A DNA stretch of 64,000 bases from Escherichia coli (GTDB lineage: Bacteria > Pseudomonadota > Gammaproteobacteria > Enterobacterales > Enterobacteriaceae), in the NCBI RefSeq assembly GCF_003334815.1, contig NZ_QOWO01000002.1. The stretch is one strand, 5' to 3'. Under the pieces are notes generated by a model, which worked only from the letters and a program-made list of their open reading frames with translations, was not told the origin of the DNA and made no database searches. Shown one piece after another: positions 15,155 to 56,467 of the stretch (position 1 is the first letter of the stretch; each line of letters opens with the position of its first letter). Position numbers and translations under genes: made by a program.

Positions 15155-15180
15155 AAAAGCCGCATGTGCGGCTTCAGATT
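15155..15180. terminator. Hairpin AGCCGCATGTGCGGCT with flanking A/T runs between rlmC and artJ
   Basis: Perfect 6-bp GC-rich stem; T-run follows on minus strand, A-run precedes on plus strand. Confidence 0.5.
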
Positions 15181-15204
15181 GCTGACAAAGTGCGCGTTGT
15201 TTAT

Positions 15205-15302
<98 letters not shown>

Positions 15303-15352
15303 AATTTTACCTTTGTCATCAGTCTCAAGCCGCGGTTGCGGCTTTCTGAATC

Positions 15353-16084
15353 TTACTGTGGGAACCACTGGTCACTGATTTTTTGATAAGTACCGTCAGC
15401 TTTAATTGCTGCCAGCGCGTTATTCAGTTTTTCCAGCAGGGCTTTGTTATCCGGACGTACAGCGATGCCCAGGCCGGTGCCAAAATATTGCGGATCGGTC
15501 ACTTTCTCAGTAGCAACACCAAGTTGTGGATTGGTTTTCAGCCATTCGTTTACCACCGCTGTGTCACCAAATACCCCATCAATACGACCATTTTTCAGAT
15601 CGATAAAGGCATTCTGATAACTGTCATAAGAGACAGTTTTCACTTCCGGGTGCTGATCCTGAATATATTTCTGGTGCGTAGTACCGTTTTCCATCCCAAT
15701 ACGTTTGCCTTTCAGATCGGCAAACGTTTTGTAGGTATCTTTTTTGGCAATCACGACGGCTGAGTTTTCATAGTAGGGCGTGGTAAACGATACCTGTTTG
15801 CTACGCTCCGGGGTGATATCCATACCGGAGATTACGGCGTCATATTTTCTGAATTTCAGGGACGGGATCAGGCTGTCGAACGCGTGATTAGTAAAAGTAC
15901 ATTCTGCCTGCATTTGTTTGCACAAGGCTTTTGCCAGATCGATATCAAAGCCGACAATCTCATTATTAGCACCTATAGATTCAAAGGGTGGATAGGTGGC
16001 TGAAACGCCAAAATTGATTTTCTCTGCGGCAGAAGCACCGAAAGTAAAGGAAGCAAGTAAAGCGGCAAGAACTAACTTTTTCAT
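15353..16084 (-). CDS. artJ: Arginine ABC transporter periplasmic binding protein ArtJ
   Basis: 243-aa ORF from ATG 16084 (MKKLVLAALLASFTFGASA signal peptide); paralogue of artI. Confidence 0.95.
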   Translation of the reverse strand: MKKLVLAALLASFTFGASAAEKINFGVSATYPPFESIGANNEIVGFDIDLAKALCKQMQAECTFTNHAFDSLIPSLKFRKYDAVISGMDITPERSKQVSFTTPYYENSAVVIAKKDTYKTFADLKGKRIGMENGTTHQKYIQDQHPEVKTVSYDSYQNAFIDLKNGRIDGVFGDTAVVNEWLKTNPQLGVATEKVTDPQYFGTGLGIAVRPDNKALLEKLNNALAAIKADGTYQKISDQWFPQ

Positions 16085-16153
16085 GATGGAACTCCCGTCT
16101 GTCAATCTTATGATTTTTGGCCGTGTCTGCGGCATGGGATAACAATGCCATCA

Positions 16154-16171
16154 AGTGAATTTATATGCAAT
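16154..16171. promoter_or_regulatory. ARG-box-like motif (putative ArgR operator) upstream of artJ
   Basis: GTGAATTTATATGCAATA resembles ARG box TGAAT-N4-ATTCA with one mismatch; 70-90 bp upstream of artJ start. Confidence 0.35.
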
Positions 16172-16193
16172 AAACATGATTAAATAATTTAAA

Positions 16194-16232
16194 TGAAATA
16201 AAAAAGACGGACAACTTAGTGGGTTGTCCGTC
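16194..16232 (-). terminator. Intrinsic terminator downstream of artM
   Basis: On minus strand hairpin GACGGACAAC...GTTGTCCGTC followed by TTTTTTATTT. Confidence 0.65.
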
Positions 16233-16255
16233 TTCATTATAAGAATTTATGCACT

Positions 16256-16346
16256 ATGTAGGCCGGATAAGGCGTCCCCGCCGCATCCGGCACAGGCACC
16301 GTGCTGATGTCTGATGCGACGCTGGCGCGTCTTATCAGACCTACAA
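16256..16346. repeat. REP/BIME element pair
   Basis: GTAGGCCGGATAAGGCGTCCCCGCCGCATCCGGCAC ... GATGCGACGCTGGCGCGTCTTATCAGACCTAC. Confidence 0.8.
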
Positions 16347-16374
16347 AACCCCCCGGCGAATGTACGCAGCCACA

Positions 16375-17043
16375 TTAATTTCGCCGTTCGAATGCCAGCG
16401 CTTTGCGCTCGATCAGACGCATCATCAGCGTCAGCAGGCCGTTAACGACCAGGTAAATAATCCCTGCCGCACCGAACACCATTACATCGTAGGTGCGTCC
16501 GTACAACAACTGGCTGTATCCCATCACTTCCATCAGCGTAATGGTGTATGCCAGAGAGGTACTTTTGAATACCAGCACCACTTCGTTGGAATAAGAAGAG
16601 AGCGAGCGTTTAAAGGCATACGGCAGCAGGATCGCCAGCGTATCTTTTTTGCTCATTCCCAGGGCGCTACAGGACTGCCACTGACCTTCCGGGATCGCAC
16701 GAATTGCACCGTAAAACAGCTGCGTGGTATACGCCGCACTATTCAGCGACAACGCAATCAGCGCACATAACCACGGTTCTGACAACAAATGCCACAGTGC
16801 CGGATACTCCTGCAAAGTCGGAAACTGGCCCGGCCCGTAATAAATCAGGAAGATCTGCACCAGCAGCGGCGTACCGGTAAACAGCGTGATATAACCCCGC
16901 ACCAGCCACACCAGCACCGGCGTTTTCAGCGTCAGGATGATGGTAAAAATCAATGCCAGAATCAGTGCCACAATCAGCGAGGCAACGGTTAGCGTCAGGC
17001 TGGTGTGTAGCCCTTTCATCAGTTCGGGTAAATACTCAAACAT
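16375..17043 (-). CDS. artM: Arginine ABC transporter permease ArtM
   Basis: 222-aa membrane ORF; start overlaps artQ stop. Confidence 0.95.
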   Translation of the reverse strand: MFEYLPELMKGLHTSLTLTVASLIVALILALIFTIILTLKTPVLVWLVRGYITLFTGTPLLVQIFLIYYGPGQFPTLQEYPALWHLLSEPWLCALIALSLNSAAYTTQLFYGAIRAIPEGQWQSCSALGMSKKDTLAILLPYAFKRSLSSYSNEVVLVFKSTSLAYTITLMEVMGYSQLLYGRTYDVMVFGAAGIIYLVVNGLLTLMMRLIERKALAFERRN

Positions 17044-17759
17044 TAGCTGGGCCTCCGCTCAAAACGTGTCGCGCGCAGGTCAATGCGTTTGAGAATGTAC
17101 TGACTGAGCAGGGTGATCACCAGGTAAATCGCCGCCGCCACAATGTACCAGGTAAATGGTTCCTGGGTACGAGTAGCGATGCTTTTTGTTTGCAGCATTA
17201 AATCATTCACACTAATCAAACTGACCAGCGCGGTATCTTTCAGCAGCACCAGCCACTGGTTACCGAGGCCAGGCAGCGCATGACGCCACATCTGCGGCAT
17301 CACCAGACGGAAAAAGATAGCCGATTTCGACAGCCCCAGCGCCTGACCAGACTCCCACTGACCCACCGGCACCGCTTTCAACGCGCCCCGAAGCGTTTGC
17401 GAGGCATAGGCGGCATACAGCAGTGACAGAGCGATGACACCACAAAGGAACGGGCTAACGTCGAAGTTCTCAATGTCCATCTGCACTGGGATCTGCACGA
17501 ACCCAAGATTGATAGTGAAGCCATCCGAAAGCGTCAGCAGCAGCTGCGAGGAGCCAAAATAGATAAACAGCACCACCAGAATTTCTGGCAGGCCACGCAG
17601 AATGGTTACCAGCGCTGAACCTGCCCACGCGACAGGACGCCATTTTGCCGACTCCCATACCGCAAAGAACATCGCCAGCGCCAGCCCGACAATCAATGCA
17701 CAAACGGCAAGGCCGACGGTCATCCCGGCGGCGCTTGCTAAAGGAAAAAATTCATTCAT
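17043..17759 (-). CDS. artQ: Arginine ABC transporter permease ArtQ
   Basis: 238-aa membrane ORF. Confidence 0.95.
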
Positions 17760-17765
17760 CAGGAA

Positions 17766-18497
17766 TTACTTCTGGAACCATTTGTTGTAGATGGTTTCGT
17801 AAGTGCCATCTTTCTTCACTTTTTCCAGCGCAGTGTTGAGTTTCTGCTGCAGCTCAGTGTTGCCCTGACGTACCGCGATGCCGAGGCCAGTGCCGAAGTA
17901 ATCTTTATCGGTCACTTTGTCGCCCACCGCCGCCAGTTTCGGGTTATCTTTCAGCCACTCAGTGACCACTGCGGTGTCACCGAAGACGCCGTCGATACGC
18001 CCGTTTTGCAGATCCAGTTTTGCGTTCTGGTAGCTGTCATACGGAACGGTAGTGATTTCCGGGTGCTTATCCATAATGAATTTCTGGTGTGTCGTCCCGT
18101 TCTGTACGCCGACTTTTTTGCCTTTCAGCTGATCAACACTGGTGTATTTGCCTTGCTGACCCACAAACAGGGCAGAGTTGTCATAGTACGGGGTGGTAAA
18201 CAGCACCTGCTTTTCACGCTCCGGAGTGATATCCATGCCCGCCATCACGGCTTCTACGCGACGGAATTTCAGGCTTGGGATCAGGCTGTCAAACGCCTGG
18301 TTAGAGAAAGTGCAGGTTGCATCAATCTCTTTACACAGCGCTTGTGCCAGGTCGACGTCAAAACCAACGATCTGGTTGTTTGCATCAATCGATTCAAACG
18401 GAGGATAGGAGGCTTCGGTAGCAAAACGAATGGTTTCGGCAGCTGTGGCGGAAAGACTAAAACCTGCAATTAACGCGGCAATCAGAACTTTTTTCAT
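17766..18497 (-). CDS. artI: Arginine ABC transporter periplasmic binding protein ArtI
   Basis: 243-aa ORF with signal peptide MKKVLIAALIAGFSLSATA; paralogous to artJ. Confidence 0.95.
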   Translation of the reverse strand: MKKVLIAALIAGFSLSATAAETIRFATEASYPPFESIDANNQIVGFDVDLAQALCKEIDATCTFSNQAFDSLIPSLKFRRVEAVMAGMDITPEREKQVLFTTPYYDNSALFVGQQGKYTSVDQLKGKKVGVQNGTTHQKFIMDKHPEITTVPYDSYQNAKLDLQNGRIDGVFGDTAVVTEWLKDNPKLAAVGDKVTDKDYFGTGLGIAVRQGNTELQQKLNTALEKVKKDGTYETIYNKWFQK

Positions 18498-18514
18498 TGT
18501 TGTTATCCCGAATC

Positions 18515-19243
18515 TTAGTGAGAGAGATAGTTTTTAAATGCTTCGGTTTGCGGCTCGGTAAAGCAGCTCGCGTCGCCTTGTTCTACGATATGACCATTTT
18601 CCATATACACCACTCGGCTGGCGGTTTTACGCGCCACTTCAACTTCGTGGGTGACGATCACCTGGGTAATATTCGTTTCTGCCAGCTCACGAATGATGCT
18701 GACGATTTGTGCCGTAATTTCCGGGTCCAGTGCGGCGGTCGGTTCATCGAACAGCAGTACCTGCGGTTCCATCATCAACGCACGGGCAATAGCAACACGC
18801 TGCTGCTGACCACCAGAAAGATGCAGCGGGTAACGATCGCTATAAGGTTTGAGACGCAGACGTTCCAGCAGTTTTTCTGCACGGGCCAGCGCCTGATCTT
18901 TACTCAACCCCAGTACACGGCAGGGCGCTTCAATCAGGTTTTGCTGCACGGTCAGATGCGGCCACAGGTTGTATTGCTGAAACACCATGCCAACGTTACG
19001 ACGCAAATCGCGAATCGCTTTGTCAGAGGGTGTTTTGGTGAAATCGAAATGGTTGCCTGCAATGTTGAGCGTACCGGAGCGCGGCATCTCAAGCAGATTG
19101 AGTACACGCAGCAGCGAGCTTTTACCCGCGCCGCTGGGGCCAAGTAACACCAGCGTTTCGCCCTGTGGGCAATCCAGCGTGATATCGAACAGCGCCTGAT
19201 GCGCGCCGTAGAAGCAATTAATGCCGTTTAATTGAATACTCAT
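18515..19243 (-). CDS. artP: Arginine ABC transporter ATP-binding protein ArtP
   Basis: 242-aa ORF from ATG 19243 ([13 protein letters not shown]...); Walker [10 protein letters not shown], signature LSGGQQQR. Confidence 0.95.
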
Positions 19244-19460
19244 TGACACTCGTATACTGGCAGTCTGATAGCTATTGAGGTCGAAGATAGTACCTTTGAC
19301 AGAATAATTATGCAATATTTCTGCTTTAAAAGTTAAAAGCAAAGCGCATTATTCAATAAACATAGCACAAAATAACGGGGGCGGTGGTCGGCGAGCATAA
19401 ATGTCGGCATTCCTCACGAAATGCCGGACAATTTACGGGGTTTATTGGTTGATCAAGGCG

Positions 19461-41261: not shown

Positions 41262-41349
41262 GTTCACTGCCGTACAGGCAGCTTAGAAATTCACAGGTAA
41301 CATACTCCACCCGCCCACCATGTTCACTGCCGTACAGACAGATAAAATG
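41262..41349 (+). CRISPR. Orphan type I-F CRISPR remnant: 2 repeats, 1 spacer, no cas genes
   Basis: 28-nt repeat GTTCACTGCCGTACAGGCAGCTTAGAAA (41262-41289), 32-nt spacer TTCACAGGTAACATACTCCACCCGCCCACCAT (41290-41321), degenerate terminal repeat GTTCACTGCCGTACAGACAGATAAAATG (41322-41349). Confidence 0.8.
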
Positions 41350-41392: not shown

Positions 41393-41480
41393 TGGCGGTG
41401 AGGGGGGGATTCGAACCCCCGATACGTTGCCGTATACACACTTTCCAGGCGTGCTCCTTCAGCCACTCGGACACCTCACC
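41393..41480 (-). tRNA. serW: tRNA-Ser (anticodon GGA)
   Basis: Reverse complement GGTGAGGTGTCCGAGTGGCTGAAGGAGCACGCCTGGAAAGTGTGTATACGGCAACGTATCGGGGGTTCGAATCCCCCCCTCACCGCCA; long variable arm, encoded CCA. Confidence 0.95.
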
Positions 41481-56229: not shown

Positions 56230-56249
56230 TACCCAATTTTTCTGAATCT

Positions 56250-56277
56250 AAAAAGCGCCTGCGGGCGCTTTTTTTGT
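56250..56277 (+). terminator. Intrinsic terminator of serS
   Basis: Hairpin AGCGCCTGCGGGCGCT followed by TTTTTTTG. Confidence 0.75.
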
Positions 56278-56283
56278 CTCCCT

Positions 56284-56297
56284 TTGATACCGAACAA
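56284..56297 (+). promoter_or_regulatory. FNR binding site of the dmsABC promoter
   Basis: TTGATACCGAACAA matches TTGAT-N4-ATCAA at 9/10 positions upstream of anaerobically expressed dmsA. Confidence 0.55.
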
Positions 56298-56467
56298 TAA
56301 TTACTCCTCACTTACACGTAATACTACTTTCGAGTGAAAATCTACCTATCTCTTTGATTTTCAAATTATTCGATGTATACAAGCCTATATAGCGAACTGC
56401 TATAGAAATAATTACACAATACGGTTTGTTACTGGAATCAATCGTGAGCAAGCTTGAGTGAGCCATT

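Follow-up and report, generated by a model that had tools for sequence, protein, structure and literature searches.

The artPIQM-artJ arginine uptake locus of Escherichia coli: a sequence-level map of the artJ operator and its surroundings

A 64,000-nucleotide stretch of Escherichia coli DNA (hereafter the window) carries at 15353-19243 the artPIQM-artJ arginine uptake locus of K-12 (b0864-b0860), which is well studied and known as the third periplasmic system for arginine transport. A motif upstream of artJ, flagged in an original prediction made from the letters alone, is the promoter-proximal half of the published artJ operator of the arginine repressor ArgR. We explain the whole locus, with a probability of roughly 95%, as one importer with two paralogous binding proteins and an ArgR-operated artJ promoter (PartJ). 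The gene identities, the paralogy, the positions and conservation of the ArgR binding boxes (ARG boxes), the terminator and the repetitive extragenic palindromic (REP) elements are established here. Work published between 1993 and 2019 (Wissenbach et al. 1993, 1995; Caldara et al. 2007; Torres Montaguth et al. 2019, PMC6640053) has already described this locus with its paralogues, the ArgR operator and the difference in regulation between artJ and artPIQM. The analysis has some value as a validation, in that a sequence-only reader hit on a genuine operator known from experiments and gave it the right 18-bp register; in addition, a cross-genus footprint independently maps, at the sequence level, both ARG boxes, the extended -10 promoter and the terminator.

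The artJ operator and promoter

ARG-box matches were scored against the 18-bp imperfect palindrome consensus WNTGAATWWWWATTCANW, with chance expectations derived from shuffles. The flagged motif, which reads AGTGAATTTATATGCAAT on the plus strand, is the sole match with a single mismatch in the 64 kb, where 0.04 would be expected by chance, and its proposed resemblance to an ARG box is thus borne out. The second-best match, with two mismatches, lies at 19299-19316, upstream of artP, and the artJ proximal box and this artP box both start with ATTGCATA. When up to three mismatches are allowed, ARG-box-like sites occur in the window at chance level (7 vs 6.9), so that only the two art-promoter sites stand out. 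The predicted coordinates were correct and in the canonical 18-bp register, but the string quoted for them, GTGAATTTATATGCAATA, is actually found at 16155-16172, shifted by one nucleotide. The prediction had also captured the proximal box only; a second, distal box went unnoticed. The operator and promoter elements are:

16154-16171, minus strand: promoter-proximal ARG box ATTGCATATAAATTCACT (gene orientation), the flagged motif, one mismatch to the consensus
16175-16192, minus strand: promoter-distal ARG box TTAAATTATTTAATCATG, degenerate, placed 3 bp upstream of the proximal one
16142-16170, minus strand: inferred artJ promoter, with -35 TTGCAT at 16170-16165, a 17-bp spacer and extended -10 TGgCATTGT at 16150-16142

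In sequence tests, the artJ operator combines a match to the consensus, a 3-bp spacing between boxes and an overlap with promoter elements. The -35 hexamer sits inside the proximal box, in the same register as at the artP box. These exact promoter hexamers are predicted ones, and transcription of artJ would start near 16135. A candidate partner box downstream, at 16150-16133, was discarded after about nine mismatches were counted by eye.

This arrangement can be compared with published work, from which ArgR binding, repression and the effect of Lrp are taken. Arginine-bound hexameric ArgR occupies two 18-bp ARG boxes, 3 bp apart, over the -35 of artJ (PMC6640053, summarising Caldara 2007). At PartJ, ArgR sterically excludes RNA polymerase and represses transcription in vitro, and its sites overlap the -35 elements at artJ and at artP to an equal degree (PMC6640053). 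In a comparative-genomics reconstruction of the ArgR regulon, artPIQM is a core member and artJ a taxon-specific member (PMC5343134); the supplement of that study lists artJ in the regulon without site sequences. The art genes are not mentioned in the text of a study using chromatin immunoprecipitation with exonuclease treatment (ChIP-exo; Cho 2015, PMC4381063).

We then followed the operator across genera. A scan for ArtJ in species-representative genomes returned 80 loci at 83-97% protein identity, 79 of which had enough upstream sequence; together with the window, these 79 Enterobacteriaceae loci gave an alignment of 80 sequences over the 163 nt upstream of the ATG. The genera sampled include Escherichia, Salmonella, Citrobacter, Klebsiella, Raoultella, Enterobacter, Kosakonia, Kluyvera, Buttiauxella, Atlantibacter, Cedecea, Trabulsiella, Yokenella and Franconibacter. 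Mismatches in the proximal box number none in 15 sequences, one in 42, two in 20 and three in 3, and hence at most three in all 80 and at most one in 57. Outside E. coli the distal box has 2-6 mismatches around a conserved core, AAATAnTTAnnCAT, and the gap between the boxes measures 3 bp in 80/80 sequences. Equally invariant are the position of the -35 (TTGCAT or TTGAAT) within the box and the 17-bp spacer leading from it to TGnCATTGT. The extended -10 itself is TGGCATTGT in 56 sequences, the others being close variants. Mean information per column amounts to 1.75 bits in the proximal box, 1.74 in the extended -10 and 1.29 in the distal box, against 0.7-0.8 in the immediate flanks.

Could the motif be nothing but the artJ promoter's AT-rich -35/UP region, with an incidental likeness to an ARG box and ArgR acting elsewhere or indirectly? 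Since the -35 lies within the box, promoter function alone would keep 6 of its 18 positions, and the chance-level number of sites at up to three mismatches also speaks for such a coincidence. However, the whole 18-mer is conserved, including its AAATTCA half outside the -35 hexamer, suggesting that more than promoter function is being kept, and it is accompanied by an invariant spacing and a second box. Moreover, a coincidence would have to produce a one-mismatch site that is so rarely expected in a window of this size, and direct binding of ArgR to PartJ is published together with repression (PMC6640053). We therefore regard a mere promoter region as very improbable and retain the ArgR operator as the identity of the motif.

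Several points nevertheless weigh against this identification. Conservation of the proximal box could partly stem from the -35 hexamer alone. The distal box is weak, with five mismatches in E. coli. The artJ promoter was missed by a simple promoter scan, because CATTGT is a poor -10 without its TG extension. Finally, the assignment of the published boxes to 16154-16171 and 16175-16192 is a probable one, based on a review-level description together with our own mapping and conservation analysis.

The artPIQM terminator, REP elements and the artJ transcription unit

The original prediction held that artJ is promoted separately from artPIQM, behind a terminator and two clusters of REP elements or bacterial interspersed mosaic elements (BIMEs). 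On the minus strand, the artM stop codon at 16375 is followed in order by a REP at 16344-16309, an opposite REP at 16291-16258, a hairpin and a T run. The terminator and the two REP units are thus present as predicted, but the two REPs make up one BIME and not two. The elements on either side of artJ are:

16196-16235, minus strand: intrinsic terminator of artPIQM, with a 13-bp stem at 16235-16203, a 7-nt loop and the T run TTTTTTATTT
16258-16344, no strand: BIME of two inverted REPs (16309-16344 and 16258-16291) in the 3' untranslated region (UTR) of artPIQM
15156-15345, no strand: artJ-rlmC spacer with a second BIME (REPs at 15205-15238 and 15274-15302), downstream of artJ and outside 15353-19243

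The terminator hairpin has a folding free energy (dG) of -21.1 kcal/mol (z = -8.65) and, with its T run, the make-up of a rho-independent terminator. In the alignment, most other genera have a GC-rich stem and a T run at this position, with stem sequences that differ on both sides; Atlantibacter and Franconibacter are among the few without an obvious hairpin there.

REPs were recognised as imperfect palindromes outside genes, about 35 nt long and with a conserved ...CTTATC(C/A)GGCCTAC end, arranged in inverted pairs and repeated in the genome, and the elements found here have all of these features. Four REP cores form two inverted pairs, whereas 0.41 matches to the core pattern are expected by chance in the window. 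The artM-artJ BIME shares inverted and direct repeats with the other REP pair, and a 4.4-kb query covering the locus matched at least 40 places in most E. coli genomes. A match to the REP-derived Rfam family naRNA4 (75.5 bits, 16261-16341) is best read as reflecting the repeat family. The EcoCyc-style name REP83a-b is quoted in PMC10100675.

artM lies directly upstream of artJ in all 78 evaluable enterobacterial loci, and the spacer between them, which has a median of 180 nt elsewhere, reaches about 290 nt in Escherichia. REP cores occur in this spacer only in five of six Escherichia loci and in two Citrobacter loci. Thus, the BIME is a lineage-restricted insertion in the artPIQM 3' UTR, and the footprint shows it to be almost confined to Escherichia.

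We also considered whether artJ is mainly the fifth gene of an artPIQMJ operon, expressed by read-through, with intergenic elements that only tune mRNA stability. REPs can stabilise mRNAs, which is established knowledge. The art genes are co-oriented, the adjacency of artM and artJ is constant, and the original gene naming, in the title of Wissenbach et al. 1993, was artPIQMJ. Yet the strong hairpin, with its counterparts in most genera, stands between artM and artJ, and a conserved promoter and operator follow directly downstream of it. PartJ-lacZ fusions are active and separately regulated (PMC6640053), and artJ and artI differ in their fold repression by arginine (PMC8050422). A read-through operon is thus extremely unlikely as the main mode of artJ expression, although some read-through from artM to artJ may occur. 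The separate promotion of artJ agrees with the published description of artPIQM and artJ as separate transcription units (PMC6640053, citing Wissenbach 1995 and Caldara 2007) and of artJ, artPIQM and hisJQMP as having ArgR-regulated sigma-70 promoters (PMC6640053).

The second REP pair lies between artJ and the convergent gene rlmC. The spacer of about 190 nt is a quasi-palindrome, in which the REPs stand between the arms of a 35-nt inverted repeat (15156-15190 and 15311-15345; 83% complementary), each arm carrying a GC hairpin. RNA from the minus strand of this spacer is predicted to fold with a dG of -92.8 kcal/mol (z = -7.9), and the REP-derived Rfam family ES036 matches the linker between the REPs, at 15239-15281. 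The hairpin at 15175-15156 is the sole one downstream of artJ with a minus-strand T run, and the artJ mRNA would end there.

Two binding proteins under divergent control

By megablast, residues 15100-19500 of the window match E. coli K-12 MG1655 and other strains from end to end at 100% identity, and 5401 of 5426 complete E. coli genomes cover at least 80% of this query. Window coordinates equal those of NC_000913.3 minus 884,491. In the RefSeq annotation, rlmC lies on the plus strand and artJ, artM, artQ, artI, artP and ybjP on the minus strand, with gene coordinates that match those of MG1655, and the exact ends of 15353-19243 are the stop codon of artJ and the start codon of artP. In its genes, operator design, terminator and REP elements, this is the very same locus as that of K-12, and no difference was seen. 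The Art proteins belong to a polar amino acid ABC importer whose binding proteins, ArtJ and ArtI, are of the SBP_bac_3 family, and all five exceed their curated NCBIfam equivalog cut-offs:

18515-19243, minus strand: artP, ATP-binding subunit of the arginine ATP-binding cassette (ABC) transporter (RefSeq; NCBIfam equivalog NF008338, 502.7 bits, cut-off 369)
17766-18497, minus strand: artI, periplasmic binding protein and ArtJ paralogue (NCBIfam ArtI_Ecoli equivalog, 536.9 bits, cut-off 522)
17043-17759, minus strand: artQ, permease (NCBIfam NF008337, 468 bits, cut-off 277)
16375-17043, minus strand: artM, permease and last gene of artPIQM (NCBIfam NF008336, 423.6 bits, cut-off 248)
15353-16084, minus strand: artJ, high-affinity arginine-specific periplasmic binding protein (NCBIfam ArtJ_Ecoli equivalog, 535.3 bits, cut-off 510)

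Two longer frames in a mechanical list of open reading frames (ORFs) were rejected in favour of the RefSeq starts: a TTG-started artP ORF reaching 19342, and a 260-aa artJ ORF starting at 16135, the RefSeq start of artJ being the ATG at 16084.

ArtJ and ArtI align without gaps and share 156 of 241 residues (65% identity, E = 2e-125), which confirms that the two are tandem paralogues. Each falls below the equivalog cut-off of the other; ArtJ and ArtI thus belong to distinct orthologue groups. The product name of artI is inconsistent, being a "putative ABC transporter periplasmic binding protein" in NC_000913.3 and an arginine-binding protein in the Prokaryotic Genome Annotation Pipeline (PGAP), and its ligands are given as arginine and ornithine (PMC6640053). 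Because the K-12 RefSeq label is still "putative", the true ligand or role of ArtI may not be settled. Neither ArtI nor ArtJ of E. coli has a structure in the PDB, the nearest entry being Salmonella STM4351 (2y7i). As a separate observation, overexpression of artJ is reported to act as a multicopy suppressor of the temperature sensitivity of lapC190 and delta-lapD strains, with a modest increase in LpxC (PMC10607373), an unexplained tie between an arginine binding protein and the regulation of lipopolysaccharide.

The control region of artP lies just outside 15353-19243 and resembles that of artJ:

19287-19337, minus strand: artP control region, two ARG boxes and promoter
19337-19320, minus strand: distal artP ARG box, degenerate, four mismatches, 3 bp upstream of the proximal box
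19316-19299, minus strand: proximal artP ARG box ATTGCATAATTATTCTGT, two mismatches, spanning about -39 to -22
19315-19310 and 19292-19287, minus strand: artP promoter, -35 TTGCAT and, 17 bp downstream, -10 TACTAT

We placed the artP +1 at about 19277 from the primers of the reporter fragment (-195 to +26) in PMC6640053. Consistent with this start, the 76% G+C stretch reported there at -96 to -116 corresponds to 19393-19373, where 16 of 21 residues are G or C. A hexamer pair returned at artP by the promoter scan was rejected, since the box would then cover the -10, at odds with the published overlap with the -35 and with the primer-derived start.

The two promoters respond differently. Repressibility is about 9-fold higher for PartJ than for PartP, and repression by Lrp is about three-fold at PartP and leaves PartJ unaffected (PMC6640053). 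Arginine changes artJ expression by -11.4- and -14.3-fold and artI expression by -3.4-fold, according to a review (PMC8050422). These data uphold the earlier proposal that the paralogues illustrate duplication with regulatory divergence.

How does the locus work? It encodes a single ABC importer, made up of the permeases ArtQ and ArtM and the ATPase ArtP, with the paralogues ArtJ and ArtI as its binding proteins. PartP drives an artPIQM mRNA that runs through the BIME and ends at the strong intrinsic terminator. Roughly 70 nt beyond, transcription of artJ would begin, driven by a separate sigma-70 promoter that has an extended -10. With plenty of arginine, the arginine-bound ArgR hexamer settles on both boxes and keeps RNA polymerase off PartJ, and synthesis of the high-affinity arginine binding protein is switched off. 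PartP has an operator in the same register and is, in addition, repressed by Lrp, which competes with ArgR. Lrp repression restricted to PartP and competitive with ArgR thus makes the paralogues respond differently and explains their difference in repressibility.

Known systems provide two comparisons. Similar to art, argT-hisJQMP of E. coli and Salmonella combines one ABC importer with two paralogous binding proteins encoded in tandem (HisJ and ArgT 70% identical, ArtJ and ArtI 65%), each with its own promoter and with regulation that diverges. ARG boxes are present at hisJ too (PMC6640053), but these lie further upstream and repress by another mechanism; argT has a sigma-54/NtrC promoter and escapes ArgR, whereas both art paralogues are under ArgR control. 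The operators of argCBH/argE, argF, argI and carAB P2 share with art the two 18-bp imperfect palindromes 3 bp apart over promoter elements, and arginine as corepressor. In contrast to these canonical operators, which control biosynthesis, the art operator controls uptake, and its distal box is markedly degenerate.

The artJ leader and other elements of the window

Beyond the operator, the footprint contains a conserved block in the artJ leader:

16091-16114, minus strand: conserved artJ 5' UTR block ATCATAAGATTGACAGACGGGAG, holding the Shine-Dalgarno sequence, 1.48 bits per column in the sampled genera

The GACAGACGGG/GACAGACAGG core of this block is complementary to nt 153-162 of the small RNA (sRNA) GcvB. 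Complementarity was assessed by counting exact complementary stretches in place of whole-molecule RNAduplex, and the 10-mer is perfect in about 10 loci and contains one G.U pair in E. coli. In 11 other loci, CACAACAUCA-type complements of 10-13 nt to the R1 seed of GcvB lie slightly further upstream (5' UTR 16091-16132). Whole-molecule RNAduplex of GcvB against the E. coli artJ UTR was not significant, 44 of 300 shuffles scoring as well, and gave unrealistically long duplexes; in our literature search, none of the papers found listed artJ among the targets of GcvB. An undescribed layer of post-transcriptional control of artJ, through GcvB at the 5' UTR, is thus a weak and rather doubtful lead. 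If GcvB did repress artJ translation, ArtJ and ArtI would differ at the sRNA level too.

Elsewhere in the window, an orphan remnant of a type I-F array of clustered regularly interspaced short palindromic repeats (CRISPR) lies at 41262-41349, beside a tRNA gene (41396-41480, minus strand). It comprises a perfect repeat, GTTCACTGCCGTACAGGCAGCTTAGAAA, at 41262-41289, a 32-nt spacer and a degenerate repeat at 41322-41349, and we take it to be the known cas-less K-12 array between clpA and infA. Two Rfam matches at gathering score, ordinary in appearance and unrelated to the art locus, are to the sRNAs RybB (3486-3564, minus strand; 105 bits) and STnc130 (56243-56377, minus strand; 140 bits).

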